NCBI GenBank assembly: GCA_045531285.1
Contig: JAZSDT010000083.1
Coordinates: 1 to 60,841 of the forward strand
DNA from: Eubacteriales bacterium
GTDB lineage: Bacteria; Bacillota; Clostridia; Oscillospirales; SIG627
DNA: 60,841 nt
Reading direction: 5' to 3'
Both the position numbers and the translations under genes were made by a program. The notes beneath the pieces were generated by a model, which saw only the letters and a program-made list of their open reading frames with translations, made no database searches and was not told the DNA's origin. Below are positions 10,110 through 59,383 of this stretch, one piece after another; the first letter of the stretch is position 1; each line of letters opens with the position of its first letter.

Positions 10110-10193
10110 ATTCTTACCTCTTTTCACTAAAGAATCATTGTATCATACGTTCTTCAATTTGTCAAAGGATATTGCACTGACAATATACAAAAA

Positions 10194-10471
10194 GCGGCTA
10201 GCAGCCGCCGGCAAATCTCGCCTATCGTAACCTTTAAGTATGGCTCTACAACGTAAAACGGCGAGGTTGATTTAATGCAATTTCCTAGTAAACAAAAATG
10301 CAGCTAGCAGCCGCTGGCAATTCTCGCCTATCGTAACCTTTAAGTATGGCTCTACAACGTAAAACGGCGAGGTTGATTTAATGCAATTTCCTAGTAAACA
10401 AAAATGCGGCTAGCAGCCGCTGACAATTCTCGCCTATCGTAACCTTTGAGTATGGCTCTACAACGTAAAAC
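10194..10471 (+). repeat. 106-bp structured intergenic repeat, 2.6 tandem units (locus A)
   Basis: Units start at 10194, 10300 and 10406 (exact 106-bp period). Unit sequence is GCGGCTAGCAGCCGC..TCTCGCCTATCGTAACCTTTAAGTATGGCTCTACAACGTAAAACGGCGAGGTTGATTTAATGCAATTTCCTAG... Confidence 0.95.
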
Positions 10472-10524
10472 AGTTATGGCATAATAATTGAGAAATTTAC
10501 CATAAAGCGAAAAAGGCTGATTTT

Positions 10525-11646
10525 TCAATCAGCCTTTTTTGCAATTCTTTCTATTACTGCCGCCGCTTCCGCACGCGTTGCAAAATTTTTGGGGAGAAAA
10601 CTGCTTCCGCTACCTGTCATTATGCCGTTTTCGGTTGTCCAGGCAATGTTGTCCTTTGCCCAATCTGAAATATTATCCTTATCCGAGTAATTGAGCTTTA
10701 CAGAAGATGCCACGTTCTTACCCTTAAATTTCGCCCAACGGCAAAGCATTGTAGCCATCTGCTCACGGGTTATATTGCTGTCGGGAGCAAATTCGGTATC
10801 ACTTACCCCAAAAACAATTCCTTTTTCATTTGCCCAAGCAACCGCCTTTTCGTACCAGCTTCCTTTTTGTACGTCGGTAAATTTGCATTCAACCGTGTCG
10901 GGCTGTTTTTCAAGCCTGTAAAGAAGTGTGACAAACATAGCTCTTGTAACGTTTAATTTAGGAGCAAATTCGGTTGGACTTACACCGTTGATTATTCCGT
11001 TTTCGTTAGCATATTTCACCGAGCCGTAGTACCAGTCTGATTCCTCAACGTCGTTAAAGGGATTCTTCCATTCCACCGGCTTATCGGGAACGGTTGGTGT
11101 AGTAGGAGTTGTAGGTGTAGTTGGTACAGTTGGTACAGTTGGTACGGTAGGTGTAGTTGGTGTAGTGGGTACGGTAGGTTCGGGTGGTTCTTTACCGTTG
11201 ATTTTAACAGTACCGGAAGCAAAGCTGGACTCTACCGGGGTAGAATTATTTTTGGCAACGGTGGATGCACTTATTTCATAAGAGCCTGAGAATGCATCGT
11301 CCTTTACAACAAATTCAACTGTGCAAAGCTCTCCTTCAAACTTCTGTGAATCCGTCAATCCAATTACGATAACGCCCTTGTCGCTATCAAAGGTAGGCGG
11401 AAGAATAGTTAGGTCGGAAATGGCGCTATTTTCCGTAAAGCCTGTAAACTCAAGCACAGAAGTGTCAAAGTTAAGCTTGGAAACAGCAAAAGAATTTGCT
11501 TCCTCTGTACACTTAAGTGAAAGAGTCAGCTTTACACTGTCGCCTGCATCAGCCTCAGCGCTTGACAAACTAAACACTGCCGAGCCTGCAAAAGCCGTAA
11601 GTGACAGCACAAATATCAATAAAAAAGTAATAATTAATTTTTTCAT
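10525..11646 (-). CDS. Cell-surface protein: signal peptide, cohesin-like domain, Pro/Thr linker, three SLH repeats
   Basis: MKKLIITFLLIFVLSLTAFA signal peptide. Cohesin-like GDSVKLTLSLK...LEFTGF...GELCTVEFVV. PTTPTTPTVPTVPTVPTTPTTPTTPTVP linker encoded by short tandem DNA repeats at about 11090-11170. SLH-type repeats (WYYGSVKYANENGIINGVSPTEFAP, WYEKAVAWANEKGIVFGVSDTEFAP, WAKDNIAWTTENGIMTG). Confidence 0.75.
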   Translation of the reverse strand: MKKLIITFLLIFVLSLTAFAGSAVFSLSSAEADAGDSVKLTLSLKCTEEANSFAVSKLNFDTSVLEFTGFTENSAISDLTILPPTFDSDKGVIVIGLTDSQKFEGELCTVEFVVKDDAFSGSYEISASTVAKNNSTPVESSFASGTVKINGKEPPEPTVPTTPTTPTVPTVPTVPTTPTTPTTPTVPDKPVEWKNPFNDVEESDWYYGSVKYANENGIINGVSPTEFAPKLNVTRAMFVTLLYRLEKQPDTVECKFTDVQKGSWYEKAVAWANEKGIVFGVSDTEFAPDSNITREQMATMLCRWAKFKGKNVASSVKLNYSDKDNISDWAKDNIAWTTENGIMTGSGSSFLPKNFATRAEAAAVIERIAKKAD

Positions 11647-11730
11647 AGCAATAGCCCCCATTTCGGCTCTATTATAGCAAACAATACGGAATTTTGCAAC
11701 ATCTTTTTATACTCGACTGTATGTTTTTAA

Positions 11731-12604: not shown

Positions 12605-12623
12605 AATTTTTTCAAAAAAGGTA

Positions 12624-12652
12624 TTGACATTTACGCCGATTTATGATATCAT
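12624..12652 (+). promoter_or_regulatory. Putative sigma-A promoter of tRNA-Val
   Basis: TTGACA (12624-12629), 17-nt spacer, TATCAT (12647-12652). The tRNA starts about 10 nt downstream. Confidence 0.45.
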
Positions 12653-12662
12653 AAACGGCGTC

Positions 12663-12738
12663 GGGGGTTTAGCTCAGCTGGGAGAGCATCTGCCTTACAA
12701 GCAGAGGGTCACAGGTTCGAGCCCTGTAGTCCCCACCA
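12663..12738 (+). tRNA. tRNA-Val (anticodon UAC), CCA encoded
   Basis: Cloverleaf read by hand: acceptor GGGGGTT/AGTCCCC, D arm GCTCAGCTGGGAGAGC, anticodon loop CTTACAA, T arm ACAGGTTCGAGCCCTGT, 3' ACCA. Confidence 0.95.
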
Positions 12739-12742
12739 AAAC

Positions 12743-12780
12743 AAAAAAGAACACCTTTTGGTGTTCTTTTTTTGTTTTTA
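12743..12780 (+). terminator. Intrinsic terminator after tRNA-Val
   Basis: Stem AGAACACC/GGTGTTCT, loop TTTT, then TTTTTT. Flanking A-run. Confidence 0.85.
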
Positions 12781-12794
12781 CACTATTGGCTGTT

Positions 12795-13639: not shown

Positions 13640-13678
13640 GAGCTGTTTAAAAACTCTGTTTGGGTTTTTAAACAGCTC
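13640..13678. terminator. Long palindromic hairpin (terminator-like), GCTGTTTAAAA family
   Basis: Arms GAGCTGTTTAAAAAC (13640-13654) and GTTTTTAAACAGCTC (13664-13678). Lies between two minus-strand genes. Confidence 0.5.
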
Positions 13679-15407: not shown

Positions 15408-15430
15408 TTTTATACCCCCTTTCCAAAAAA

Positions 15431-15639
15431 GCGGCTAGCAGCCGCTCGCAATTCTCGCCTATCGTAACCATTGGGTATAACCCTACAATGTAAAACGGCG
15501 AGGTTGATTTAATGCAAATTCCTTGCATATAAAAAAGCGGCTAGCAGCAGCCGGCATGCTCGCCTATCATAAATTTTGAGTAAAACATACAATGTAAACG
15601 GCGAGGTTGATTTAATGAAATTTCCTAGCATATAAAAAA
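15431..15639 (+). repeat. 106-bp repeat family, 2 tandem units (locus B)
   Basis: Units start at 15431 and 15537 (106-bp period). The second unit is more diverged. Lies in the divergent araC/GH4 intergenic region. Confidence 0.9.
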
Positions 15640-17186: not shown

Positions 17187-17201
17187 TTATACTAACTCAA
17201 A

Positions 17202-17300
17202 GCGGTCAGCGACCGCCGGCAATTCTCGCCTATTGCAATCTGTATATGTGCCAAACAAATCAGAACGGCGAGATTGGTTTAATGCAATTTCCCGGTATAT
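17202..17300 (+). repeat. 106-bp repeat family, single unit (locus C), abutting the brnQ start
   Basis: GCGGTCAGCGACCGC hairpin variant, CTCGCC...GGCGAG, GATTGGTTTAATGCAATTTCCCGGTATAT tail. Ends 20 nt before the brnQ ATG. Confidence 0.9.
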
Positions 17301-18645: not shown

Positions 18646-18738
18646 GGTCAATGCTCGCCTATACCAAGCTTTGAGTATAAACCTACAACGTAAAACGGCG
18701 AGGTTGATTTACCACAATTTCGCGGCATATAAAAAAGC
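18646..18738 (+). repeat. 106-bp repeat family, single unit lacking the 5' hairpin (locus D)
   Basis: GCTCGCCTATACCAAGCTTTGAGTATAAACCTACAACGTAAAACGGCGAGGTTGATTTACCACAATTTCGCGGCATATAAAAAAGC. Confidence 0.85.
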
Positions 18739-22442: not shown

Positions 22443-24314
22443 ATGGTAAAAAACGTTATAAAAGACATAGAAAACTCACGTATATTCACAAAAGACGAAC
22501 AGCTTTCAATGAAGCTAGAGGGTTCGTTTGAAAAGGCTGTCCGTTTCATCGAGCGTAATCAAATATGCGATGTTGGACTGTGGCAGAAATTTGTAGAGCT
22601 GTTTCGCTGGCACGAGGACGGCTGCGGAGATGCATGGGTCAGCTGGAGAAGTGAATACTGGGGCAAGATGATGCGCAGTGCGGCAATGGTGGTAAAGTAT
22701 ACCAACGATGACGGCATGTACAAAATATTGGAAAACAGCGTAAGAGACCTTTTGACCACTGCCGACAAACACGGCAGAATTTCGGGTTACTCTGTAGAGC
22801 AGGAATTCACACACTGGGATATCTGGGGCAGAAAGTACGTAATGCTCGGTATGTTCTACTTTATGGAGATATGCCGTGACGAAAAGCTCAAAGATGAAAT
22901 GACCTATGCAATCAAGCGTCAGGCTGATTATATGATAGAGCGTATCGGACACGGTAAGCTCGACATAAGAGAGTGCAGTTCAAACTGGGAGGGACTCAAC
23001 TCCTGCTCGGTGTTGGAGCCCATTGTCAGACTGTACAAGCTGACGGGTGAGCAAAAATATTTTGAATTTGCCGAGTATATTATCTCTACAGGCTTTATAC
23101 AGTCTGCGAACATAATAGAGCTTGCATTTGAAGACAAGGTTTCACCTCACGAATATCCCGTCGTAAAGGCATACGAAATGATGTCCTGCTTCGAGGGACT
23201 TTTGCAGTTTTACTACGTTACGGGTATTGAAAAATACAAAACGGCTATTCTCAATTTCGGAAAACGCATTATCAACGGTGAGCTTAGTATAATCGGATGC
23301 AGCGGATGTACTCACGAGCTATTTGACCACACTGCCGTAAGACAGACTCAGACGGACTACGAGGGAGTTATTCAAGAGACCTGTGTAACGGTTACCTGGA
23401 TGAAATTTGCCGCAGCCGTTTTGGAGCTGTCAGGAGACGTAAGCTTTGCCGACTGTATAGAACAGTCCTTCTATAACGCATACGCGGGAAGCTTTAATAC
23501 ACAGAGAATTCCTTCCGTAAGATACCGCGTACCCGACAGGGAGCACATAGTACCTCAGGTACTTCCCTTCGACGCCTACTCACCTCTTGTATCAAACGTA
23601 AGAGGACGTGCTACAGGAGGCTTCAACTACTTCCCTGACGGTACCTTCTACGGATGCTGTGCTTGTATCGGTGGTGCGGGCGCCGGAGTTATTCCTCAGA
23701 TTGCCGTTATGAAAAGCCAAAACGGAATTGTGCTGAATTTCTACGAAAAGGGTATAATAGAAACTAGCGGAATAAAGCTTTGTGTGGATACCGATTATCC
23801 CTACGACGGAAAAATCACCATTGAACTTGAAACGGCTGCGAAAGCCTTTGATATAACTCTGAGAGTGCCTCAATGGTGCGACGGTGCAAGTATCACAGTA
23901 AACGGTCAGTCACAGCCCTGTCACAAGGGATACGTAACTCTTAGCCGTCAGTGGACCGACAAGGACGTCATAGTACTCAATCTGCCAATGGCAGTAAAGC
24001 GTGTTCTTCCTCCCAAAGAAGCTGTAAACTGTGATATCTTTGCAGGGTACACCTACGGACCGCTAGTGCTTGCTGCCGACAAGAGAATAACCGATCCCGA
24101 CGCAATACTGGACGTTGTGGAAGGCACGCAAAAGGCAGTATACTGTCCCGAAATAAGAGAGGCTGAGCTTTGCCTTGAGGTGACACTTGCAAACGGTGAA
24201 AAGGCTCGTCTCATCGACTACGCCTCAGCGGGCAAGACCTGGTCTGAAGAATCCCGTTGCGCTGCTTGGTTAAAAAGGCGGAGAGTCTCCGCAGACAATT
24301 CTCGCCTATCGTAA
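22443..24314 (+). CDS. DUF1680 / GH127-GH146-like glycoside hydrolase (beta-L-arabinofuranosidase-like)
   Basis: 623 aa. QETCVTVTW (E-T-C) and FYGCCACIGG (C-C) resemble the Glu/Cys3 zinc-site and Cys-nucleophile motifs of GH127 HypBA1-type enzymes. The last 12 codons and the stop lie inside a repeat unit. Confidence 0.6.
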   Translation: MVKNVIKDIENSRIFTKDEQLSMKLEGSFEKAVRFIERNQICDVGLWQKFVELFRWHEDGCGDAWVSWRSEYWGKMMRSAAMVVKYTNDDGMYKILENSVRDLLTTADKHGRISGYSVEQEFTHWDIWGRKYVMLGMFYFMEICRDEKLKDEMTYAIKRQADYMIERIGHGKLDIRECSSNWEGLNSCSVLEPIVRLYKLTGEQKYFEFAEYIISTGFIQSANIIELAFEDKVSPHEYPVVKAYEMMSCFEGLLQFYYVTGIEKYKTAILNFGKRIINGELSIIGCSGCTHELFDHTAVRQTQTDYEGVIQETCVTVTWMKFAAAVLELSGDVSFADCIEQSFYNAYAGSFNTQRIPSVRYRVPDREHIVPQVLPFDAYSPLVSNVRGRATGGFNYFPDGTFYGCCACIGGAGAGVIPQIAVMKSQNGIVLNFYEKGIIETSGIKLCVDTDYPYDGKITIELETAAKAFDITLRVPQWCDGASITVNGQSQPCHKGYVTLSRQWTDKDVIVLNLPMAVKRVLPPKEAVNCDIFAGYTYGPLVLAADKRITDPDAILDVVEGTQKAVYCPEIREAELCLEVTLANGEKARLIDYASAGKTWSEESRCAAWLKRRRVSADNSRLS

Positions 24315-24378
24315 CCTTTAAGTACGCCCACACAAGATAAGACGGCGAGGTTGGTTTAATGTGATTTTTCGGTATTAA
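24278..24378 (+). repeat. 106-bp repeat family, single unit (locus E) overlapping the 3' end of the GH127-like CDS
   Basis: GCGGAGAGTCTCCGC hairpin variant, CTCGCCTATCGTAACC...GACGGCGAGGTTGGTTTAATGTGATTTTTCGGTATTA. Confidence 0.9.
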
Positions 24379-24429: not shown

Positions 24430-24705
24430 ATCGAAATATTTAAAGGCTGTGACGAAGACGGTTTTGTCAGGCATTTTACAGAGAGTTGACGTTTGGTGCG
24501 AGTCAATATTTGACCTACAAGGTAACCTATCACTTCCGAGCCGGAATGCTGAACGTATTCAAGTAAGTGTTCCCGTGATTGCTGCGTAAATGCATAGGAA
24601 TTGTTTGATTCCAAGAGTGGCAGGTCTCCTGCAATTTGAGTGGTACCGCGGATGAGTTAATTTCACCCGTCTCAAAGAAAAAGCTTTGAGACGGGTTTAT
24701 TTTTT
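24430..24705 (+). promoter_or_regulatory. T-box riboswitch leader 1, specifier read as AUC (Ile)
   Basis: Stem I with AGAGA bulge and GUUUGGUG distal loop. Specifier loop ...CCU AUC A|CUUC (24529-24531). T-box sequence UUGAGUGGUACCGCGG (about 24636-24651). Terminator CCCGTCTCAAAG/CTTTGAGACGGG (24666-24695) plus T-run. Confidence 0.85.
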
Positions 24706-26987: not shown

Positions 26988-27001
26988 TTTGCAAAAAAAT
27001 A

Positions 27002-27030
27002 TTGACAAACCTCATCTGATATGATATACT
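27002..27030 (+). promoter_or_regulatory. Sigma-A promoter of T-box leader 2
   Basis: TTGACA (27002-27007), 17-nt spacer, TATACT (27025-27030). Confidence 0.7.
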
Positions 27031-27034
27031 TCTT

Positions 27035-27307
27035 ATATTCAAGGAAAGGCTTTGACGAAGAGTATACCAGCACATCTATGCTCAGAGAAACGGCGTTTGG
27101 TGTAAGCCGTAGATAGACGTTGGTGTTTGTAGCTTCCGAGCCGAGAGGAAGAAAACGTTTGCCAGTAGACCCTCTCCGTGATTGCTGCGTAAATGCATAG
27201 GAATTGATTGATTCCAAGAGAGGCGGTTAGTCCGCAACTTGAGTGGTACCGCGGGCGTTGTTATTATGCTCGTCTCAAGGATCATATCTTTGGGACGAGC
27301 TTTTATT
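27035..27307 (+). promoter_or_regulatory. T-box riboswitch leader 2, specifier read as GUA (Val)
   Basis: Stem I with CAGAGA bulge and GUUUGGUG distal loop. Specifier loop ...GUUU GUA G|CUUC (27129-27131). T-box CUUGAGUGGUACCGCGG. Terminator GCTCGTCTCAA../..TTGGGACGAGC (27268-27300) plus TTTTATT. Confidence 0.85.
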
Positions 27308-27333
27308 GTCCCGATACAAAACCGGAGGAAATA

Positions 27334-29616: not shown

Positions 29617-30278
29617 TGAAATATAAAAGAATAACGCTTCTTTCAGGTCATTACGGAAGCGGAAAGACAAATATAGCGGTCAACATGGCATTTGAGCTGA
29701 AGCAACAGGTTGAAAGCGTTGTGGTTGCCGATATGGATATAGTCAATCCCTATTTTCGTACAAAGGACAGTCAAAAGGAGTTTGATGAGGCAGGAATAAA
29801 GCTTATTGCATCCGCCTTTGCAGGCTCTAACGTAGACCTGCCCTCTCTTCCCCAAGAGATGTACTCACTGACAGATGACCGCACAAGCCACTGCATACTT
29901 GATATAGGTGGTGATGAACGCGGAGCGTTGGTGCTTGGAAGATATGCGCCTATGATAAAGGAAGAAAACGATTACGAAATGCTTTTCGTTTTCAATGCCT
30001 GCCGTCCCTTGACACCGGATGCCGACTCGGCACTGGAGGTTATGAGAGAAATTGAATGGGCAGGAAAGATACCCTTCACAGGTATCATAAACAACTCAAA
30101 CATCGGAGAGGAAACAACTCCCGAGACAGTTTTGTCATCAATGGAAAAAGCAAACCAGCTGAGTCAAAAAGCCGGTATTCCATTGGTTATGACCTCGGTT
30201 CATTGGAAGATATTTCCCTCCCTTGAAAATAAAATACCAAATCTATTCCCATTAAAACTTCAAACAAAAATCATGTAA
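29616..30278 (+). CDS. P-loop NTPase (SIMIBI class; CooC/MinD/G3E-like ATP/GTP-binding protein)
   Basis: Walker A LLSGHYGSGKTN, Walker-B-like ILDIGGD. 220 aa. Start overlaps the ligase stop (TAATG). Confidence 0.6.
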   Translation: MKYKRITLLSGHYGSGKTNIAVNMAFELKQQVESVVVADMDIVNPYFRTKDSQKEFDEAGIKLIASAFAGSNVDLPSLPQEMYSLTDDRTSHCILDIGGDERGALVLGRYAPMIKEENDYEMLFVFNACRPLTPDADSALEVMREIEWAGKIPFTGIINNSNIGEETTPETVLSSMEKANQLSQKAGIPLVMTSVHWKIFPSLENKIPNLFPLKLQTKIM

Positions 30279-30290
30279 GGAGTGTAAAAA

Positions 30291-30497
30291 ATGCCTAAGC
30301 TTACTTTTAAAACAGACAACTGTAAGGGCTGTGGACTTTGCGTAGATGCTTGTCCCAAGGGCGTTCTTGCAATTGCCAAGGAAAAAATCAACAAAAAAGG
30401 TCATCACCCTGTTGAAGCGGTGAAAGAGGACGCTTGTATCGGTTGTACCTTCTGTGCTACCATGTGTCCCGACTGTATAATCAAGATTGAGAAATAG
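30291..30497 (+). CDS. 2-oxoacid:ferredoxin oxidoreductase delta subunit (2x[4Fe-4S] ferredoxin)
   Basis: CKGCGLCVDACP and CIGCTFCATMCP cluster motifs. 68 aa. Confidence 0.85.
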   Translation: MPKLTFKTDNCKGCGLCVDACPKGVLAIAKEKINKKGHHPVEAVKEDACIGCTFCATMCPDCIIKIEK

Positions 30498-30512
30498 AAA
30501 GGTCGTGAAATA

Positions 30513-31580
30513 ATGGCAGATAAAGTATTGATGAAAGGTAACGAAGCCATTGCCGAAGCCGCAATCGTTGCAGGCTGCCGCCACTACTTCGGTTACCCTA
30601 TTACTCCCCAAACTGAAATTGCCGCTTACATGGCTAAGAGAATGCCTAAAATCGGCGGTTGCTTCCTTCAGGCTGAAAGCGAAATTGCCGCTATCAACAT
30701 GGTATACGGCGTTGCTTCCTGCGGTAAGCGTGTTATGACATCATCCTCAAGCCCCGGAATCTCACTTAAGGGCGAAGGACTTTCCTACCTTGCAGGTGCG
30801 GACCTTCCCTCCCTTGTTGTAAACGTACAGAGAGGCGGCCCCGGTCTGGGCGGTATTCAGCCCTCGCAGTCAGACTACTTCCAGGCTACAAAGGGCGGAG
30901 CACACGGTGATTTCCACATGATAGTTCTTGCTCCCGCTTCCGTTCAGGAAATGGCTGACCTCACAGTTCACGGCTTTGACCTTGCAGACAAGTACCGTAT
31001 GACTTCCATGATACTTGCCGACGGTACAATGGGTCAGATGATGGAGCCTGTTTCTCTTGACCTTGACGTTAAGCCCATGCCCGAAAAGCCTTGGGCTACA
31101 GTGGGAACAAAGCTCGAAAGATTCCACAATATCACAAACTCACTTTCTCTTGTTCCCGAAGAGCTTGAACAGCTCAACTTCAAGAGATACGAGCGTTATG
31201 CTGAAATAGAAAAGAATGAAGTTATGTACGAAGAGTATATGATGGAGGATGCAGAGATCTGTATCGCCGCATTCGGCATTGCTTCACGTGTTGCCAAGAA
31301 CGCTATCGTTGAGGCTCGTGCTCAGGGTATCAAGGTAGGTCTTATACGTCCTATCACCCTTTGGCCCTTCCCCAAGGCTCCCTTCCTCAAGGCGACCGAA
31401 AAGGTACATTCATTTATTTCTGTTGAGCTTTCTATGGGTCAGATGATAGAGGACGTACGTCTTGCTACAGAGTGCCGCCGTCCCGTGACACTTGTAAACC
31501 GTGCAGGCGGTATGATCCCCTCACCCGAACAGATCCTCGAAGCAATTAAAACTGCTCACAAAAACGGAGGTGCAAAATAA
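30513..31580 (+). CDS. 2-oxoacid:ferredoxin oxidoreductase alpha subunit (VorB-like, ketoisovalerate-type)
   Basis: KVLMKGNEAIAEAAIVAGCRHYFGYPITPQTEI is the N-terminal signature of the POR/VOR/KOR alpha family. 355 aa. Confidence 0.85.
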   Translation: MADKVLMKGNEAIAEAAIVAGCRHYFGYPITPQTEIAAYMAKRMPKIGGCFLQAESEIAAINMVYGVASCGKRVMTSSSSPGISLKGEGLSYLAGADLPSLVVNVQRGGPGLGGIQPSQSDYFQATKGGAHGDFHMIVLAPASVQEMADLTVHGFDLADKYRMTSMILADGTMGQMMEPVSLDLDVKPMPEKPWATVGTKLERFHNITNSLSLVPEELEQLNFKRYERYAEIEKNEVMYEEYMMEDAEICIAAFGIASRVAKNAIVEARAQGIKVGLIRPITLWPFPKAPFLKATEKVHSFISVELSMGQMIEDVRLATECRRPVTLVNRAGGMIPSPEQILEAIKTAHKNGGAK

Positions 31581-32347
31581 TGGTAGTATTTGACAAACCC
31601 CATGCACTTGCCGACCTTCCCATGCACTACTGCCCCGGCTGTACACACGGTATTATTCACCGTCTTGTTGCCGAGTGTCTTGATGAACTTGGAATTGAAG
31701 GAAGAACCATCGGTATCGCACCCGTTGGTTGCTCGGTTATGGCATATAATTATTTCAACTGCGATATGATTGAAGCGGCTCACGGACGTGCTCCTGCCAT
31801 TGCTACAGGTGTTAAGCGTGCTGACCCCGAAAATCACATAGTATTTACATATCAGGGCGACGGTGACCTTGCCTCTATTGGTATGGCAGAAACCGTACAC
31901 GCAGCAGCGCGTAACGAGAACATCACCGTTATCTTTGTAAACAATGCAATCTACGGTATGACTGGCGGTCAGATGGCTCCTACCTCACTTCCCGGTCAGG
32001 TTACTCAGACCTCTCCCTACGGACGTGACACCAACCACTGCGGATTCCCAATCAAGGTATGCGAAATGCTCTCTGAGCTTGACGGACCTGAATATCTGGA
32101 AAGAGTTGCCGTGAACAACGTGAAGAATGTTAAGGCTGCTAAGAAGGCTATTAAGAAGGCGTTTGAAAACCAGATAAACAATAAGGGCTTCTCACTCATC
32201 GAGGTTATTTCAAGCTGTCCTACAAACTGGGGTATGACACCTCAAAAGGCACTTGAATGGGTTGCAGATAAAATGATTCCCTACTATCCTCTCGGTGTAT
32301 ATAAGGATAGAACAGCGGGCATTGTAAAGGGGGATAAAAATGACTAA
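31580..32347 (+). CDS. 2-oxoacid:ferredoxin oxidoreductase beta subunit (TPP-binding)
   Basis: YCPGCTHG, GDGD...NNAIYGMTGGQ TPP/Mg motif. Start overlaps the alpha stop. Confidence 0.85.
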   Translation: MVVFDKPHALADLPMHYCPGCTHGIIHRLVAECLDELGIEGRTIGIAPVGCSVMAYNYFNCDMIEAAHGRAPAIATGVKRADPENHIVFTYQGDGDLASIGMAETVHAAARNENITVIFVNNAIYGMTGGQMAPTSLPGQVTQTSPYGRDTNHCGFPIKVCEMLSELDGPEYLERVAVNNVKNVKAAKKAIKKAFENQINNKGFSLIEVISSCPTNWGMTPQKALEWVADKMIPYYPLGVYKDRTAGIVKGDKND

Positions 32348-32870
32348 TCAGTACGTTTTTGCAGGATTTGGCGGTCAGGGTATCCTTTTCGCAGGTAAGC
32401 TCCTTGCATACAAGGGTCTGACAGAGGACAAGCAGGTTTCATGGCTTCCCTCCTACGGTCCCGAAATGAGAGGCGGTACGGCAAGCTGTTCCGTTATCAT
32501 CAGCGACACACCTGTAGGTTCTCCCATTGTTTCCAATCCCGACATACTCATCGCTATGAACCTTCCTTCTCTTGACAAGTACGAGAATCTTGTAAAGGCA
32601 GGCGGTATGATATTCTACGATTCTTCTCTCATTGAAAGAGAAGTTAAAAGAGATGACGTAAAGGCGTTCCCCATTCCCGCAACAAAGCTTGCAGACGAGA
32701 ACGGAACTCCCACACTTGCAAACATGATAATCATGGGTAAGGTGCTCAAGGAGACAGGCGACTTCACAGACGAAGGCGTTCTTGCAGCTCTCAAGAAGGT
32801 AATTTCCGCTAAGCGTGCGGATATGCTTGACGTAAACCTTAACGCTATGAAACTTGGACGCGATTATTAA
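32340..32870 (+). CDS. 2-oxoacid:ferredoxin oxidoreductase gamma subunit
   Basis: [17 protein letters not shown]...[11 protein letters not shown] is typical of gamma subunits. 8-nt overlap with beta. Confidence 0.85.
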
Positions 32871-32886
32871 TTGGAGGCGAATTTAA

Positions 32887-33951
32887 ATGGAAATTTCAAT
32901 CACTCGCGCAAAGGAGCTCAAGGCTAAGCCTGACAGTTCCACACTTGGCTTCGGTAAAATATTCACCGACCATATGTTCATAATGGACTATTCGCAGGAG
33001 AAAGGCTGGCACGATGCAAGAATCGTTCCCTTCGGCCCCTTCCCCATTCATCCCGCATCAACCGTTCTTCACTACGGCTCGGAAATCTTTGAAGGACTCA
33101 AGGCATACAGAATCGCCGACGGCTCGGTACAGCTCTTCAGACCTATGGAGAACATCCGCCGTCTTAACAGCTCGGCTGAGCGTCTGTGTCTCCCCGAGAT
33201 TCCCGAGGACCTTGCTCTTGAGGTACTCACAAAGTTCGTTGAATTTGAAAAGGACTGGACACCTGCTGCAGAGGGTACTTCTCTCTACATCCGTCCCTTC
33301 CTCTTCGGTAACGACGAGACACTTGGTGTACACGCAGTACACAATGCAACCTTTATGATAATCCTCTCTCCTGTAGGAAGCTACTATAAGGAAGGTATTA
33401 ACCCTGTTAAGATCATGATTGAAGCTGATGACGTAAGAGCTGTAAGAGGCGGTACAGGTTACACCAAGTGCGGCGGTAACTATGCGGCAAGTAACAGAGC
33501 AGGTCAGAAGGCTGAAGCTCAGGGATACGCTCAGGTACTCTGGCTTGACGGTGTTGAAAGAAAGTATATTGAAGAAGTTGGCGCCATGAACGTTATGTTC
33601 AAAATCAACGGCGAGATCGTTACTCCCATGCTTTCAGGCTCTATCCTTCCCGGTATCACAAGAAAGTCTTGCATTGAAGTTCTCAAGTCCGAGGGCTACA
33701 AGGTAAGCGAGAGACTTCTCAGCGTTGATGAGCTTGCAGAGGCTCTTGAAAACGGAACTCTTGAAGAGGCTTGGGGAACAGGTACAGCAGCAGTTGTATC
33801 GCCCATTGGCGAGCTTGCTTACAAGGGCAAGAAGTTCATCATCAACGAAGGTAAGATCGGCGAGGTCACTCAGCATCTTTACGATACTCTCACAGGCATC
33901 CAGTGGGGTAAGATCGAAGACAAGTTCAACTGGACCTACAAGCTTAATTAA
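32887..33951 (+). CDS. ilvE: Branched-chain amino acid aminotransferase (fold type IV)
   Basis: 354 aa. FGKIFTDHMF, LHYGSEIFEGLKAYR, GGTGYTKCGGNYAAS, ILPGITR and GTAAVVSPI motifs of IlvE type II. Confidence 0.9.
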   Translation: MEISITRAKELKAKPDSSTLGFGKIFTDHMFIMDYSQEKGWHDARIVPFGPFPIHPASTVLHYGSEIFEGLKAYRIADGSVQLFRPMENIRRLNSSAERLCLPEIPEDLALEVLTKFVEFEKDWTPAAEGTSLYIRPFLFGNDETLGVHAVHNATFMIILSPVGSYYKEGINPVKIMIEADDVRAVRGGTGYTKCGGNYAASNRAGQKAEAQGYAQVLWLDGVERKYIEEVGAMNVMFKINGEIVTPMLSGSILPGITRKSCIEVLKSEGYKVSERLLSVDELAEALENGTLEEAWGTGTAAVVSPIGELAYKGKKFIINEGKIGEVTQHLYDTLTGIQWGKIEDKFNWTYKLN

Positions 33952-36043: not shown

Positions 36044-36324
36044 TCATCAAAAATAGAACGAAATGCATTGAAGGAATTATCGCTTTTCCCTATTCCGTCA
36101 AAGAGAGCCGAGTTTGGTGTGAGTCGGTACGGTAAGCTAAAGTGAGTCTCGTTCCGGAGCAGGGTCGCCCAACGTGCTATGCACTGCGTAAGCGATCACG
36201 GTTTGTCCCGTTACCTTGACAGAAAGCTTGATTGAGCTTTACAGAGTGACTGCATAAGCAGTAATTCGGGGTGGTACCGCGAAGTATTTTCGTCCCCTTA
36301 GCCGAAAGGCTGAGGGGTTTTTTG
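36044..36324 (+). promoter_or_regulatory. T-box riboswitch leader 3, specifier read as CUC (Leu)
   Basis: Stem I with AAGAGAG bulge and GUUUGGUG distal loop. Specifier loop ...GAGU CUC G|UUCC (36148-36150). T-box AUUCGGGGUGGUACCGCGAAG. Terminator CCCCTTAGCC-GAAA-GGCTGAGGGG (36294-36317) plus TTTTTT. Confidence 0.85.
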
Positions 36325-40198: not shown

Positions 40199-40210
40199 GA
40201 GGGATCGACA

Positions 40211-40240
40211 AACGGCGAGAGCAATTAAATGCAATTTCCA
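40211..40240 (+). repeat. 106-bp repeat family, 3' fragment (locus F)
   Basis: AACGGCGAGAGCAATTAAATGCAATTTCC matches the repeat tail. Confidence 0.6.
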
Positions 40241-40245
40241 ACAAC

Positions 40246-40275
40246 AAAAAGCACTTCATTAATGAAGTGCTTTTT
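40246..40275. terminator. Bidirectional intrinsic terminator
   Basis: AAAAA-GCACTTCATT/AATGAAGTGC-TTTTT between convergent genes. Confidence 0.85.
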
Positions 40276-41875: not shown

Positions 41876-41996
41876 TATTTTCATCCTTTTCGTGTTTTTA
41901 TATATCATAACATATTTTTCGTAAATTGAAAAGAGTTTTTTTAGTTTTTACAGTATTTTTTTATATATTGACAATTTGGATGATGACAGCATAAAA

Positions 41997-42132
41997 ATAG
42001 GCGAGATTTGCCAGCGGAGGCTCTTCGCTTTTTACGTACCCAAAAAAGTATTTACTACAGCCTCGCCGTTTTGCGTTGTAGGGTTATATTTAAGGTTACG
42101 ATAGGCGAGATTTGCCAGCGGTCGCTGACCGC
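41997..42132 (-). repeat. 106-bp repeat family, about 1.3 units in reverse orientation (locus G)
   Basis: CCTCGCCGTTTTGCGTTGTAGGGTTATATTTAAGGTTACGATAGGCGAGATTTGCCAGCGGTCGCTGACCGC plus an upstream partial copy ATAGGCGAGATTTGCCAGCGGAGGCTCTTCGC. Ends 1 nt from the yunB stop. Confidence 0.9.
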
Positions 42133-42133
42133 A

Positions 42134-42808
42134 TTATCCTGCTTTAAAATCTATTATTTCGCCTACCGTTTCATCGTCCAGATTTTCAATGGAAGTATAG
42201 GCATCCGGTACACGTCCTACTATGACGGTATCTGCAATAACCATACTGTCCGAAACCTTTACGCTATTGTGCTCACCGAGTACGATAACCCCCAATATGA
42301 TCTCCACCTTCAAGGTTATTCTGTGCCACGATTGGTTTATTCCCACCTCGGAAAAACTGCTTTCCACAGAAGTAATAACACTATCGGTTGGTATCAGCTT
42401 TATAGAAAGATTAAAGCCTCTGCCCGACAGCAAATACATTCCCGTAAGATTACCTATGGGTATCTGAAGAACACGCTTACTGTCGTTTGCCAAGATTTCA
42501 AGTATCTTTAGAGAAACATCGTTTTTTAAACGGTTTATGTTTACAATGTCCGAGGAAAGAGATAGCACATTTCCCTCGGAATCGCAATTAAGAGCAACAA
42601 GGTCGCTGTACGAAACGCTGTTTTCTTCAAGCACCGACTTCACTGCACTGTTTATCACCTGAGTGGCGTGGGAACGTGAGTACTGTACGGCTCTTGCGTT
42701 GATTATGGGAAGCAATTGATTAAAGGAGTAAATAAACAAAAGCACTAAAAACAGCAGAGTAATCAGAATTATAATAGCTCTCCGCCTGACTTTTTTCACT
42801 TTTTTCAC
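42134..42808 (-). CDS. yunB: Sporulation protein YunB
   Basis: N-terminal TM helix, then the pattern ...AVQYSRSHATQVINSAVKSVL...IPIGNLTG...LSGRGFNLSIKLIP..., typical of YunB. 224 aa. Confidence 0.75.
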   Translation of the reverse strand: MKKVKKVRRRAIIILITLLFLVLLFIYSFNQLLPIINARAVQYSRSHATQVINSAVKSVLEENSVSYSDLVALNCDSEGNVLSLSSDIVNINRLKNDVSLKILEILANDSKRVLQIPIGNLTGMYLLSGRGFNLSIKLIPTDSVITSVESSFSEVGINQSWHRITLKVEIILGVIVLGEHNSVKVSDSMVIADTVIVGRVPDAYTSIENLDDETVGEIIDFKAG

Positions 42809-44744: not shown

Positions 44745-44771
44745 TAGAGTACCATAATCAAAAATAAAAAA

Positions 44772-45089
44772 GCGGTCAGCGACCGCTGGCAAAGCTCGCC
44801 TATCGTAACCTTTGAATATATCCCGACAATGCAAAACGGCGAGGTTGATTTAATGCAATTTCCTAGCATATAAAAAAGCGGCTAGCAGCCGCTGGCAAAG
44901 CTCGCCTATCGCAACCTTTAAATATACCCCTGCAATGAAAAACGGCGAGGTTGATTTAATGCAATTTCCTAGTATACAAAAAAGCGGCTAGCAGCCGCTG
45001 GCAAAGCTCGCCTATCGCAACCTTTAAATATACCCCTGCAATGAAAAATGGCGAGGTTGATTTAATGCAATTTCCTAGTATACAAAAAA
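44772..45089 (+). repeat. 106-bp repeat family, 3 complete tandem units (locus H)
   Basis: Units start at 44772, 44878 and 44984 (exact 106-bp period). Units 2 and 3 are nearly identical. Confidence 0.95.
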
Positions 45090-45115
45090 AACTGCAACAT
45101 AGTTGCAGTTTTTTT
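45084..45115. terminator. Bidirectional intrinsic terminator
   Basis: AAAAAAA-ACTGCAAC-ATA-GTTGCAGT-TTTTTT. Confidence 0.85.
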
Positions 45116-46090: not shown

Positions 46091-46125
46091 CTAACATTTA
46101 TATTCGTACCAAAGTTTTTGGTCTG

Positions 46126-46218
46126 TAGCGACTAGCAGCCACCGACAAAGCTCGCCTATCGTAACCTTTGAGCATACAGCGAGATTGATTTAATGCAATT
46201 CCCTAGCATATAAAAAAT
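46126..46218 (+). repeat. 106-bp repeat family, single degenerate unit with internal deletion (locus I)
   Basis: ..GCGACTAGCAGCCACCGACAAAGCTCGCCTATCGTAACCTTTGAGCATACAGCGAGATTGATTTAATGCAATTCCCTAGCATATAAAAAAT. Confidence 0.85.
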
Positions 46219-46240: not shown

Positions 46241-47080
46241 TCATTTTTTCATATCCGATACAATTGCCGCACCAAGTATCATAACAGCTCCAACCGTTTC
46301 GGGCAGGCTGAGTACAGTGTGGGTAAGTACCGATGAGAGAATAATTGCAAAAACAGGGTCAATGTAGCTGTATACTGCCACAGTCTGAGGAGCGAGCTTA
46401 TTGGCTGCTCCAAAATAAAGAAGATAGGCAATACCTGTGTGAACAATACCCAATATAAGTAATATTATAATGCTTTTCGTGTCAAAGTCAAGTGTTGTAA
46501 GGTCATATTTATAAAGAACGTACGGAAGCAGTACAAGTGCCGAAACGCCAAGCTCAAAAACCGTTGTTTCAACGGAGGTTACGTTCTTTAAGCGTGAACT
46601 CATAAGGACGATAAGGGCATAGAGCAACGCCGCTGTCAATCCAAATAAAAGTCCCTTCCAATGACCGAAGGACTGCACTCCCGACAGCAGCACCATACCT
46701 GCTACGGCAACTGCTGCACAGGCATTCTTAAAGGCGCTTGACTTTCTTTTGAGGAACAAAGGAGACAAGAAAATCACAAACACAGGTGCCATATAATAGC
46801 AAAGTGTAGCAAAGGAAACGCCGGTATATCTGTATGCTTCAAAAAGCAATACCCAATTTAAGCCCAGGAAAATTCCCGACGGCAAAAGTAACAGGAAATT
46901 TGAAGCAATACTCTTGAAGCTCAGCCTTTTACGGCATACGGCGGCATACAATAACAGTATAAAGAATCCGCAAGCGGCACGGAACAGGGCGATAAACGCA
47001 GAAGGATAAGTCAGCCTGTCCACGAAAATTCCCAGCGTACCGAATATAAGCATGGAGATTATAATACGCAGCTTATTCAT
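46241..47080 (-). CDS. DMT-superfamily (EamA-type) transporter
   Basis: 10 TM helices and two EamA-like halves. ATG at 47080 overlaps the upstream stop (ATGA). The ORF-track start is 47149. Confidence 0.75.
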   Translation of the reverse strand: MNKLRIIISMLIFGTLGIFVDRLTYPSAFIALFRAACGFFILLLYAAVCRKRLSFKSIASNFLLLLPSGIFLGLNWVLLFEAYRYTGVSFATLCYYMAPVFVIFLSPLFLKRKSSAFKNACAAVAVAGMVLLSGVQSFGHWKGLLFGLTAALLYALIVLMSSRLKNVTSVETTVFELGVSALVLLPYVLYKYDLTTLDFDTKSIIILLILGIVHTGIAYLLYFGAANKLAPQTVAVYSYIDPVFAIILSSVLTHTVLSLPETVGAVMILGAAIVSDMKK

Positions 47081-47970
47081 TTTTCCTCCACAGGTAAATA
47101 GTGCTTCATAGTCTTTTCTATCCAATACTCGAATCTTGTGTCGGGGCAAAGATGCTCCAGTGCTTTGAATCGCAAATACATATCAACGCCGTCGGAAGGG
47201 TCGTGCCAGGTGTCAGCGTAAATATAATCGAATTTTTCCAGCGGAGCCACCTTTTCGGCATACTCAAAGGCATCGGCATGGACTATTTTCACTTTTTCTT
47301 TGTTGGGAAACTGAGGAAGGATAAAACGCTTGAATATATCGATAACGCTTTGGTCACGTTCAACTACGGTAACACTGTCAACACAGTCCATAATCGATGT
47401 CATATACGGGAAATATCCCAAGCCCAGACCGTAGGTTGCAACCTTTCCCTTCGCAATCTCGATAGCCTCCCGCATGGTCTCAACCTCATTGGGAGTTACA
47501 AGCATCCACTCCACTCCGTTTTCCAGTATTACGGGATAGGGAAACTCACAGTCGAAGAAGGCGACCTGCGGAATTATTCTGCCGTCCTCCATCTCCTTTA
47601 GGTCATCAAGGGGAATGAGCTCATAGGGCTTGATAACAGCCGTGTGGAAGTCCCAGTTCTTTTCCTTGATGGGAGTGACCTTGATATTTTTATAGTAGGG
47701 GTCACAATCGTAATCCTCTTTTTTTACGTAGTGTATCATTTCGGGGAAATAGTATTCAAACATTTCCCTGTCCTCTTCGTCACTGTCAATGTGCATATAG
47801 CAAGCTGAGGCAAGGACTACGGAGAATGCATATTTTGTATCGACACCGCACTCGTTGACAAGCTCGTCTATTATATCCGAGGTGATGAAATCGGAATTGT
47901 AGTTCATAAAAGCACTGATGCGTGCCAGTACCTCGGCATTGTATTTTTTTATCTTTTCTTTTGTAAGCAT
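47077..47970 (-). CDS. Hypothetical protein with class-I SAM-methyltransferase/spermidine-synthase-like C-terminal fold
   Basis: VATYGLGLGYF (motif-I-like), VTVVERD (motif II), IVHADAF, IYADTWH. The N-terminal ~150 aa are unassigned. Confidence 0.4.
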   Translation of the reverse strand: MLTKEKIKKYNAEVLARISAFMNYNSDFITSDIIDELVNECGVDTKYAFSVVLASACYMHIDSDEEDREMFEYYFPEMIHYVKKEDYDCDPYYKNIKVTPIKEKNWDFHTAVIKPYELIPLDDLKEMEDGRIIPQVAFFDCEFPYPVILENGVEWMLVTPNEVETMREAIEIAKGKVATYGLGLGYFPYMTSIMDCVDSVTVVERDQSVIDIFKRFILPQFPNKEKVKIVHADAFEYAEKVAPLEKFDYIYADTWHDPSDGVDMYLRFKALEHLCPDTRFEYWIEKTMKHYLPVEEK

Positions 47971-50723: not shown

Positions 50724-50792
50724 ACGTAACGTGGTATACAAAACCGCAAAGCAGTGAGATTGATCTAATGCAATTTTCCGGTATAAATAAAG
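50724..50792 (+). repeat. 106-bp repeat family, degenerate 3' fragment (locus J)
   Basis: ..AAAGCAGTGAGATTGATCTAATGCAATTTTCCGGTATAAATAAAGC, followed by a GCTGTTTAAAA-type hairpin (about 50791-50828). Confidence 0.55.
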
Positions 50793-50832
50793 CTGTTTAA
50801 AAACTCAAGCAGAGCTTTCAAACAGCTATGAT

Positions 50833-54719: not shown

Positions 54720-54735
54720 TTATTTATCGGTATAC

Positions 54736-54770
54736 AAAAATACGTCTCACTTTTGTGAGACGTATTTTTG
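54736..54770 (+). terminator. Intrinsic terminator
   Basis: ATACGTCTCAC-TTTT-GTGAGACGTAT followed by TTTT. Confidence 0.85.
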
Positions 54771-54778
54771 TACTTTAT

Positions 54779-54986
54779 GGGAAATTTCTCGATTATTACG
54801 CCCTCGCCGTTTTGCTTTGTTTGGGTAGTATTGTCATAAGGGTAGGCGAGATTTGCCAGCGGCTGCTAGCCGCTTTTTCACTTTATATGAAATTTCTCGA
54901 TTATTACGCTCTCGCCGTTTTGCTTTGTTTGGGTAGTATTGTCATAAGGGTAGGCGAGATTTGCCAGCGGAGGCTCTCCGCTTTTT
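54779..54986 (-). repeat. 106-bp repeat family, variant subfamily, 2 units in reverse orientation (locus K, 110-bp period)
   Basis: GAAATTTCTCGATTATTACGC(C/T)CTCGCCGTTTTGCTTTGTTTGGGTAGTATTGTCATAAGGGTAGGCGAGATTTGCCAGCGG(CTGCTAG/AGGCTCT)CCGC occurs twice. The core between the CTCGCC/GGCGAG arms and the tail differ from the main family. Confidence 0.9.
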
Positions 54987-55001
54987 CACAAGATAGCAAC
55001 T

Positions 55002-55193
55002 TTATTTCACTATAAAGCCAAGCTCTTCAATTGCATTCTTTACCTCTGCATCGTCAATAGATGCCTTTGATACCTTTACTTCACCGCTTTCAAGGTTGAT
55101 GCTCACCGAGTATCCCAACTCTGTCAACGCTTTTTCAACCCTTGACGAACAATGATTACAATGCATACCTTCTACCTTAACAATCTTTTCCAT
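55002..55193 (-). CDS. copZ: Copper chaperone CopZ (heavy-metal-associated domain)
   Basis: VEGMHCNHCSSRVEKAL MxCxxC motif. 63 aa. Confidence 0.9.
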   Translation of the reverse strand: MEKIVKVEGMHCNHCSSRVEKALTELGYSVSINLESGEVKVSKASIDDAEVKNAIEELGFIVK

Positions 55194-55205
55194 AACAGTT
55201 CTCCT

Positions 55206-57561: not shown

Positions 57562-57640
57562 GAGAATCTCGCCTATCGCAACGTTGTGCATACTCTCAAA
57601 AAAGCAAAACAGCGAGGTTGTATTAGATTTAATTTTCTTT
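57562..57640 (+). repeat. 106-bp repeat family, degenerate unit (locus L)
   Basis: GAGAATCTCGCCTATCGCAACGTTGTGCATACTCTCAAAAAAGCAAAACAGCGAGGTTGTATTAGATTTAATTTTC. Confidence 0.7.
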
Positions 57641-57707
57641 TATAAAAATTTTTCAAAAAAATGTGACCTTACCGCACGCTTATGCGTGTTAAGGATAGGA
57701 GGTACAA

Positions 57708-58753: not shown

Positions 58754-59383
58754 ATGAAAAAGCTTAGCATCATCCTCGCGGCTCTTCTTGCCGCAAGCGT
58801 ACTCCTCGTATCCTGCGCAAAGGACGAGACAGTATCCCCCAACAACCAGGAAGTTGAAAACCAGGAAACAGTTACTCCCGACGAGCTCCCCGAAACTCCC
58901 GTTGAAGACGAGACTCCTGTTGAAGATGAGACTCCTGTTGAGCCCGAAGTTCCCGCAGCATCCGGCCTTCAGGCTACAGTAGACGCTATCTACGAAAAGT
59001 ACCCCGTTCCCTTCATGGCAGGTACAATCCCCGCAGAAATGATTACAGCAGATTCATATGCATACTACACAGGTATGGCTGATGACTCCAAGGTTGCTGA
59101 CCTTCTTGTTTCAGAGTCTATGATAGGCGCTCAGGCATACTCTCTTGTTCTTGTTACCGTTAAGGACGGCGAGGACGTAAATGCAGTTGCTGACGCTATG
59201 ATGAACGGCATCGACCAGAGAAAGTGGATGTGCGTTGAAGCAGACCTTATCAGAACAGTTACCCATGGCAACACAGTAATGCTTGTTATGATCGATTCTT
59301 CAATGGAGATCCCCGTTGACGGCTTTGTAACCGCATTTGAAGAGGTTGTAGGAGCAGTTGAATACGAGTCTGTAAAGGGCTAA
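58754..59383 (+). CDS. Lipoprotein, DUF4358-like
   Basis: Lipobox MKKLSIILAALLAASVLLVSC, acidic Pro/Glu linker (TPVEDETPVEDETPVEPEVP), then GAQAYSLVLVTVKDGEDVNAV..., typical of DUF4358. Confidence 0.5.
   Translation: MKKLSIILAALLAASVLLVSCAKDETVSPNNQEVENQETVTPDELPETPVEDETPVEDETPVEPEVPAASGLQATVDAIYEKYPVPFMAGTIPAEMITADSYAYYTGMADDSKVADLLVSESMIGAQAYSLVLVTVKDGEDVNAVADAMMNGIDQRKWMCVEADLIRTVTHGNTVMLVMIDSSMEIPVDGFVTAFEEVVGAVEYESVKG

Follow-up and report, generated by a model that had tools for sequence, protein, structure and literature searches.

Small interspersed repeats are common in bacteria, and one more family of them would be unsurprising. In REP/REPIN sequences the whole repeat is a short (20–40 nt) imperfect palindrome, commonly found as inverted doublets and mobilised by RAYT (TnpA-REP), a Y1 HUH enzyme. 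In BOX elements the internal boxB alone is reiterated between boxA and boxC, and the ends of IS200/IS605 elements carry two similar subterminal hairpins bound by one TnpA, with a tetranucleotide as the target. Here we describe a non-coding repeat of about 106 bp found at 12 loci in a 60,841-nt stretch of an uncultured, gut-type Eubacteriales bacterium (GTDB lineage Oscillospirales, SIG627; GenBank assembly GCA_045531285.1, contig JAZSDT010000083.1), which is called the window below. Comparison with related genomes suggests that in a small clade of uncultured Oscillospiraceae this interspersed repeat has probably been mobile, as a non-autonomous element. The family is distinctive in its density, in lacking terminal inverted repeats (TIRs), in its precise placement at the edges of terminator A/T-tracts and in a head that mimics its target.

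The term MITE is used here for miniature inverted-repeat transposable elements as in the definition of Delihas (2011; PMC3184786). The repeat resembles MITEs in that it is small, non-coding, multi-copy, intergenic, without a transposase of its own and polymorphic between relatives, and in that it has internal-deletion derivatives retaining both ends. Unlike MITEs, it has no demonstrable target site duplication (TSD) of fixed length, carries a single terminal hairpin and forms head-to-tail arrays. An inverted-repeat search of two single copies with their flanks found no TIRs and returned only the internal hairpin and an internal CTCGCC/GGCGAG pair, and the canonical MITE was rejected for this lack of TIRs at the element termini.

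With REP/REPIN sequences the repeat shares a GC-rich hairpin with compensatory stem changes, an extragenic position, often by gene ends or terminators, and a high copy number. It differs from them in being 106 nt long with a 15-nt hairpin and in having neighbours that lie head to tail, not inverted. A REP/REPIN assignment was set aside for want of inverted doublets; the conserved GTAG-type tetranucleotide, a feature of REP/REPIN, was not identified in the element, and none of the 47 open reading frames (ORFs) of the window matched Y1_Tnp. Like pneumococcal BOX, RUP and bcr1, the repeat lies between genes of a Firmicutes host, is partly tandem and has stem-loop potential; nothing similar to it in sequence was found in the searched collections. 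Unlike BOX, it reiterates the whole unit (period 106 or 108), and boxA-(boxB)n-boxC modules are lacking, so that BOX was rejected too.

Group IIC introns are described by Toor et al. (2006; PMC1702495) as preferring sites directly after the inverted repeat and T-run of intrinsic terminators. The repeat likewise sits directly after a terminator hairpin and T-run, a likeness of habit and not of membership: it has 106 nt against over 600 nt, lacks the GUGYG...AY ends and the ribozyme domains, and matched no Rfam group II model even at E<=10. Like the substrates of HUH enzymes (IS91/ISCR/Helitron and IS200/IS605 PATE), the unit has no TIR or clear TSD, a subterminal GC hairpin near one end and a short sequence-defined target, and like rolling-circle elements it forms head-to-tail multimers. 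Unlike IS200/IS605, it has one hairpin and a homopolymer-tract target; an IS200/IS605-type PATE was rejected on its single GC hairpin per unit, and no Y1 or Y2 transposase was found among the window ORFs. The absence of TIRs together with a subterminal hairpin is common to the repeat and IS91/Helitron-like elements, which we regard as a resemblance only.

The repeat unit and where it occurs

The structure of the unit was taken from an alignment of 29 full copies, read on the + strand of the unit. The unit of ~106 bp begins with five or six A residues, followed by a 6-bp GC hairpin (GCGGNN-AGY-NNCCGC), the box GGCAAWKCTCGCCTAT, ~25–30 nt, the box AAACGGCGAG and a conserved 30-nt tail, GTTGATTTAATGCAATTTCCTAGNATAT. 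The box 3' of the hairpin reads (Y)GGCAAWKCTCGCCTATCG in the alignment, and the ~25–30 nt between the two boxes are poorly conserved and unconstrained. GGCGAG of the second box is an inverted copy of CTCGCC, and direct GCAATT repeats lie ~65 nt apart within the unit. The single GC hairpin is located 5–6 nt from one unit end. The head motif of the element is A6-GCGGNNAGYNNCCGC-GGCAAT and the tail motif GGCGAGGTTGATTTAATGCAATTTCC; a variant, 'type B' tail, ATAATAATTGAGAAATTTACCATAAAGC, is present in the third unit at 10400 and in the subfamily at 54772–54989.

Two nhmmer profiles were used, the first built from five tandem units and the broader one from 36 copies of two genomes. The five-unit profile found 19 units or fragments at 12 loci (E-values 4e-36 to 3e-3), and the 36-copy profile gave the same 19 matches and nothing further below E=1e-3. 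These are exactly the 12 loci of the initial annotation, which was made from the window sequence alone and had counted about 17 units. The repeat covers 1,711 nt, or 2.8% of the window, at a density of about one unit per 3 kb, and the hairpin motif occurs 15 times against 0.95 expected in the window, every time within units. Tandem Repeats Finder reported a period of 106 at 10187–10471 (2.7 copies, 96% matches) and at 44766–45089 (3.1 copies, 94% matches), a period of 103 with indels at 15425–15639 and a period of 108 at 54772–54989 on the − strand. The exact 106-bp period proposed for tandem copies thus held for two arrays, and did not hold for the array at 15425, which has one 103-nt unit, or for the 108-nt variant subfamily.

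Several details of the first description were borne out and others changed (Table 1). The array given as 10194–10471 is multi-unit as proposed, and its third unit runs on to ~10508. The copy at 18646–18738 had been taken for one unit and is not a full one, the hairpin being missing. The loci at 40211 and 50724 are indeed fragments, both weak and tail-only in the profile search (40204–40241, E=1e-3; 50743–50786, E=2e-4), and the unit at 46126–46218 does carry an internal deletion. All copies but one had been called intergenic, and that at 24271–24377 is the one which overlaps an ORF end; the copy end at 42138 also touches the stop codon of the YunB ORF. Ten of the 12 loci have one orientation, the + strand, as noted earlier. 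Copies in the second genome described below have mixed orientations within contigs, so this bias is not general to the family. GC skew in the window tracks gene orientation, and no replication direction could be read from it.

Searches of RNA, plasmid, phage and viral collections gave no relatives of the repeat. No relevant Rfam family was found in a gathering-threshold scan of the whole window or in one of the main array at the permissive threshold of E<=10, so that the check proposed in the initial annotation returned no known RNA family. Plasmid and phage collections gave no match by BLASTN in distant mode, and viral contigs none in a gapped-pattern scan; the same kind of scan gave 11 stretches from JGI metagenomes, and 0/11 were family members by nhmmer. 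Among 185,579 species genomes (one per species), the exact tail 22-mer was present in one, on 14 contigs. The carrier is a metagenome-assembled genome (MAG), 'uncultured Oscillospiraceae bacterium SRP315200_co1_260' (GCA_964650465.1), in which the 8-kb loci around the 22-mer matches held 32 copies. The window and the MAG represent different species (BrnQ 74% identical, AEC transporter 94%). The family is therefore not confined to one region, as a second species carries it on 14 contigs or more. It was also found on a Logan assembly of a different run, and no copy was found in three more distant relatives (BrnQ 59–69% identical, ~31 kb inspected in total). As judged by sequence matching, the repeat family is new to the searched resources.

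Copies gained and lost between genomes

About 170 kb of the MAG was compared, and two 21-kb MAG blocks, L026 and L031, are syntenic with the window. In block L026, the arrays at 10188 and 15425 and the copies at 17198 and 18647 are present in the window only, two copies are present in the MAG only, and one site, between GH127 and the T-box, is occupied in both. In block L031, the copies at 46122 and 50743 are restricted to the window (the fetched block ends before 57565) and those at L031 3108–3214 and 20830–20927 to the MAG; three sites are occupied in both, namely YunB/PGA_cap, ATPase-HMA/265-aa gene and a site downstream of PGA_cap. The 17198 and 18647 sites are also empty in the relative L029. 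At the main locus the MAG has one unit between the transporter stop codon and the terminator, and in the window three units lie on the far side of the terminator, oriented opposite to the MAG unit. The opposite sides of the terminator and the opposite orientation indicate independent insertions. Comparison of the syntenic blocks shows independent gains and losses of copies at many sites after the divergence of the two species.

Most copies resemble others of their own genome, and pairwise differences among copies range from 1 to 40%. One pair of MAG copies lying on different contigs is 99.1% identical, which suggests that the repeats spread recently in the MAG. The copy at the shared GH127 site is 73% identical between the species, compared with 92% for the adjoining T-box leader. 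Individual copies thus decay while the family keeps its boxes, which is the pattern left by a selfish element with active lineages selected for mobilisation. In substance these results agree with the non-autonomous, REP/BOX/MITE-like element first suggested: the repeat is dispersed in a second species, shows lineage-specific gains and losses with clean empty sites, and includes the nearly identical MAG pair. The defining features of the named families are missing, as set out above, since there are no TIRs, no inverted REP doublets and no BOX-type modules.

Incomplete copies were of several kinds. A deletion between the two GCAATT boxes of a unit was found in the MAG, which indicates that recombination acts on units. 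Several truncated copies lack the head and keep the tail, with starts at model positions 16–27 and 63–67. Fragments with the head alone are nearly as common as those with the tail alone, and internal-deletion derivatives with both ends are frequent.

Position beside A/T-tracts and possible insertion at resident units

A feature absent from the initial annotation is that the element tail lies consistently against an A-tract and a terminator hairpin. Read in element orientation, the flank beyond the tail opens with an A-run, A making up 4.8 of the first 6 bases, and after it there is usually a long hairpin specific to the locus, a host intrinsic terminator. The 50-nt right flanks folded at a mean of −15.2 kcal/mol and the left flanks at −6.7 kcal/mol (Mann-Whitney p=8e-5); energies of −10 kcal/mol or below were reached by 73% of the right and 17% of the left flanks. 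A strict hairpin was present in 17/33 right flanks versus 5/29 left flanks (Fisher p=0.007). At L007 and L010, two elements converge on both faces of one bidirectional terminator.

Empty sites were used to see what preceded insertion. The empty site in L029 reads CAGCC followed by CATAAAAAAGG and a hairpin, with the tract already present. Two empty sites in the window read GTAG followed by AAAAAAGTACTTGACA, which is the A6 run upstream of a T-box promoter, and ATCATTTTTTTATTATG, in which an A/T-tract is present. In the MAG, an empty site reads GCCGCTGTTTTATTTT followed by ACCATG, and the short derivative in the window lies directly after this terminator T-run. The 18647–18732 site, which has a conserved promoter (TTTACA-17-TATAAT) upstream of the copy, is empty in the MAG and L029, and there the right-hand A6G run and hairpin are already in place. 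Alignment with these empty sites shows that the tail is flush with a pre-existing A-tract, mostly the A/T-tract of an intrinsic terminator. Insertions were also found in promoter regions, in a 5' untranslated region (UTR) and over gene ends. In the aligned sites, then, the terminator hairpin is frequent and not obligatory, and what all of them have in common is the edge of an A6/T6 tract. A-rich 6-mers were present on both sides of the element, and left and right 6-mers matched at 98/144 positions against 92.8±3.4 in shuffled pairings (p=0.098).

The junctions within arrays (...ATAT-AAAAAA-GCGG hairpin) have the same geometry as the junctions with the host (...ATAT-AAAAAA-host hairpin), so that a resident unit resembles a target. 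The closest relative of a unit in an array is mostly its neighbour, which points to local duplication; in the main array, units 2 and 3 are 99% identical and unit 1, with another hairpin top, is 89% identical to them. An exception is the L005 pair, whose identity is 0.84 to the neighbour versus 0.93 and 0.88 to copies in other places. At 42138, a younger unit lies against the head of an older unit common with the MAG. Local duplication and insertion beside a resident unit both seem to contribute to arrays. The main difference between near-identical neighbours (93–95%) at 54772–54989 of the window and at L010 1053–1257 is a four-base, compensated swap at the top of the hairpin. The swaps in neighbour pairs are CT/AG versus AG/CT and CG/CG versus TC/GA, and may have come from short-patch conversion or from a template switch at the palindrome.

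Proposed mobility of the repeat

We consider it probable that the repeat is a non-autonomous mobile element. A more specific proposal, which we offer tentatively and hold to be doubtful, is that it is a DNA element with a previously undescribed mode of homing to T-tracts or terminators, and that its own terminal hairpin recreates the target. In the reading that we favour, insertion would be directed to the edge of an A6/T6 tract, and a resident copy could itself be a target, its head being again an A-tract and a GC hairpin. Targeting of resident copies together with unequal exchange would give in-register arrays. A trans-acting enzyme may recognise the invariant boxes and the hairpin, in which structure is kept and the top sequence is free. 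By analogy, and as a guess, the most plausible class is a HUH-type single-strand DNA transposase of the IS91/Helitron, IS200/IS605 or RAYT kind. Side effects on neighbouring genes would be expected: copies would supply one more terminator in one direction and would lengthen 3'- or 5'-UTRs, as at 18647–18732.

Several observations weigh against mobility or against the targeting proposed. Pfam searches of the 47 window ORFs gave no transposase, reverse transcriptase or other candidate mobilising gene, and none was found between paired half-elements in MAG loci. The head-half/tail-half pair 1.5 kb apart at L014 was considered as an autonomous parent and rejected, as it flanks a serpin-like gene and not a transposase. 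TIRs were lacking in the two single copies searched, and the matching of flanks that a TSD would leave reached only the p value given above. The family is carried by two genomes only, with ~170 kb of the second inspected. Present activity in the genome of the window is not evident from a best between-locus identity of 88.7%; the 'recently active' element of the initial annotation is thus supported in the window by local array duplication and not by the likeness of separate loci. Finally, the association with terminators could come partly from selection, insertions beside terminators being harmless, and not from targeting.

Less likely readings: RNA function, host cassettes and retroposition

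RNAalifold on the aligned copies recovered two helices and no others. The top two pairs of the hairpin covary (CG/AU/UA and GC/UA/CG), with 29 double-change cells against 10.3±2.2 in shuffles; 0/500 shuffles reached 29, and slid controls collapsed. The second helix, a 6-bp CTCGCC/GGCGAG stem closing a ~38-nt loop, is invariant and therefore says nothing on structure. On the opposite strand, where the hairpin is followed by T6, the terminator scan was passed in all three units of the main array, and the element reads there as a predicted intrinsic terminator. These features, and the retention of the conserved boxes in both species, would fit small RNA genes or cis-acting RNA modules that were multiplied by duplication like multi-copy small RNAs and act via the boxes. 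They would be transcribed on the strand where the hairpin and U6 form their own terminator, or within neighbouring UTRs; one copy is located within a 5' UTR and many others are found between a stop codon and a terminator, which makes their transcription certain in some contexts.

We regard an RNA function of this kind as unlikely. Besides the negative Rfam scans, the folding energy of the whole unit was no better than that of shuffles on either strand (z −0.99 and −0.71), and only 2/12 predicted pairs covary. No unit-internal promoter on the terminator-carrying strand was conserved across units upstream of the terminator, and none passed the consensus scan as a shared feature. The one sigma-70-like match, TCGCCA-16-TATATT in one unit, has its −10 box in the poorly conserved region and would give a transcript of ~60 nt at most. 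Orientation with respect to flanking genes is mixed, and half-copies, internal deletions and the fast-evolving orthologous copy point to decay and not to maintenance. The structured RNA gene offered as the second possibility in the initial annotation thus found little in its favour beyond one short covarying hairpin. A tail promoter seen by eye, TTGATT-18-TATAAA, failed the consensus scan; at 17198 it would place the transcription start within the brnQ ribosome-binding site. Many type A tails contain a mini-ORF (MQFPSI...) with a GAGG ribosome-binding site 8–9 nt upstream. A coding reading was rejected: the ATG is missing in type B and several MAG copies, the length varies from 6 to 13 codons, and the periods 106 and 108 are not both multiples of 3, which counts against a coding unit.

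Equally improbable in our estimate is a DNA cassette selected by the host, as an extra terminator or insulator or an array of protein binding sites, that was spread passively by recombination between A-tracts. The invariant CTCGCC/GGCGAG boxes, the direct GCAATT repeats and the consistent placement at terminators are what such a cassette would present; arrays arising mostly by local duplication and the MAG deletion between GCAATT boxes agree with recombination acting on the units. Against it, insertions are also found in promoter regions, in a 5' UTR and over gene ends, and most sites differ between the species, with orthologous copies poorly conserved. The pair of 99% identical copies on different contigs calls for a process that copies and moves the unit, not for local recombination.

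The pre-existing T/A-tract abutted by the A-rich unit end also recalls a SINE-like retroposon, in which the A-rich 3' end of an RNA copy of the unit would anneal to a host T-tract, typically that of an intrinsic terminator, and a nick in this tract would provide the 3' OH for reverse transcription, as in target-primed reverse transcription. The absence of TIRs, the headless copies that keep the tail and start at variable model positions, and the headless copy at 18647 in an otherwise intact site all accord with this, and the preference of group IIC introns, which are also retroelements, for sites after terminators is described by Toor et al. (2006; PMC1702495). We nevertheless think retroposition very unlikely. 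No reverse transcriptase gene was seen in the window, the A-tract has a constant 5–6 nt and is not a variable tail, and head-only fragments are almost as frequent as tail-only ones. The required RNA cannot be defined, since the + strand has neither a promoter that passes the consensus scan nor a terminator, and the frequent internal deletions with both ends kept are more typical of DNA elements. Lastly, a regional duplication or assembly artefact confined to the contig, which could be raised because the data of the source genome come from one contig, is effectively refuted by the occurrence of the family in an independently assembled MAG and in the Logan assembly of a different run, and by copies that differ from one another by 1–40% and are bordered by unique sequence between ordinary genes.

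Targeting of this kind, if mechanistic, would point to an enzyme reading terminator-like DNA and would offer a simple model for the origin of head-to-tail arrays of mobile elements. In practice, the repeats break short-read assemblies of this uncultured Oscillospiraceae clade and create spurious ORF calls. They would also add terminators or UTR sequence beside genes, and their use as strain markers is possible.

Table 1. Copies of the 106-bp repeat and adjoining host terminators in the window.
Feature	Coordinates	Strand	Remarks
3-unit array	10188..10508	+	Units 10188–10293, 10294–10399 and 10400 to ~10508; third unit with type B tail ATAATAATTGAGAAATTTACCATAAAGC
Host A-tract and hairpin GAAAAAGGCTGATTTTTCAATCAGCC	10509..10534		Terminator of SLH/cohesin gene, flush with right end of the array
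2-unit array (106 + 103 nt, 84% identical)	15425..15633	+	Divergent AraC/GH4 spacer; MAG site empty
Single full unit	17198..17300	+	Between GH4 terminator and brnQ start (ATG 17320); empty in MAG and Logan relative L029
Unit without hairpin (model positions 24–105)	18647..18732	+	In 5' UTR of 862-aa gene
Single full unit	24271..24377	+	Covers last 43 nt of GH127 ORF 22443–24314; tail faces A-run upstream of T-box promoter
Tail-only fragment	40204..40241	+	Flush with T-run of terminator 40242–40275; full unit at the equivalent MAG place
Unit and head-only remnant	41987..42138	−	Unit 42052–42138, hairpin top TC/GA; remnant 41987–42034, hairpin top AG/CT, orthologous to deleted copy in MAG
3-unit array, each unit exactly 106 nt	44766..45083	+	Main array, locus of the original observation
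Host bidirectional terminator A8-CTGCAACATAGTTGCAG-T7	45084..45115		Flush with right end of 44766..45083 array
Unit with ~16–29 nt deletion in variable region	46122..46213	+	Both ends retained
Short derivative: tail and remnant of hairpin 3' half	50743..50792	+	Exactly at distal edge of terminator T-run; MAG site cleanly empty
Host bidirectional terminator (ACAAAAATACGTCTCACAAAAGTGAGACGTATTTTTG on − strand)	54735..54771		Flush with right end of 54772..54989 array; conserved in MAG
2-unit array, 108-nt subfamily with type B tail	54772..54989	−	Units differ mainly by hairpin-top swap (CT/AG vs AG/CT)
Degenerate copy without hairpin	57565..57646	+	Divergent spacer between P-type ATPase gene and ECF sigma factor gene

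Genes and other repeats in the window

Two further repeats were observed. The first is smaller than the 106-bp repeat and forms a long hairpin resembling a terminator, whose inner palindrome, TGTTTAAAAACTC-N4-GAGTTTTTAAACA, is conserved and whose outer stems vary. It is present in the window at 13644–13674 (−) and 50794–50824 (+), 2 matches against 0 expected, and also at L008 ~5295–5330 and L010 ~5335–5385 and ~5935–5975. The other is palindromic, GGGAATGCTTTTTAGCAAAAAGCATTCCC, and absent from the window; it was seen in the MAG at L031 ~1955–1990, 2125–2165 and 11085–11120, nested within or beside degenerate copies of the 106-bp repeat.

The genes of the window are, by Pfam, ordinary chromosomal genes of spore-forming Clostridia. 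The cohesin/SLH gene (10525–11661) and the EamA transporter gene (46241–47149) are missing from the syntenic MAG blocks, and each directly adjoins a repeat copy or array. The former contains in-frame tandem repeats of 9/18/27/36 bp at 11111–11188, probably a Pro/Thr-type linker. Two adjacent tyrosine recombinase (phage integrase family) genes, 277–1170 and 1564–2763, lie at the contig start beside ychF, with no visible link to the repeats. On the − strand at 54990–55205, between the P-type ATPase gene and the repeat array, there is a ~63-aa HMA-domain copper-chaperone-like ORF; too short for the 100-aa cut-off used for ORFs, it is annotated in the MAG at L031 1733–1924.

T-box leaders, whose promoters are nearly identical, were found at 24440–24677 and 36059–36300 (Rfam, 94.6 and 102.8 bits). 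Downstream of one is an HTH-cupin-AMP-binding gene (24723–26987), an unusual T-box client, and downstream of the other a LeuA-like gene followed by an AP_endonuc_2/AMP-binding fusion gene. The cluster 24723–33951, which is conserved in relatives (L030), comprises two paralogous HTH-cupin-AMP-binding genes, a ParA-like ATPase, a class IV aminotransferase and a 2-oxoacid:ferredoxin oxidoreductase of three subunits. A lone tRNA-Val(TAC) gene lies at 12663–12738 and is crossed by the predicted ORF 12558–12935. An 18-bp tandem repeat (2.8 copies, 90% matches) is present at 58891–58941 within an ORF without a Pfam match.

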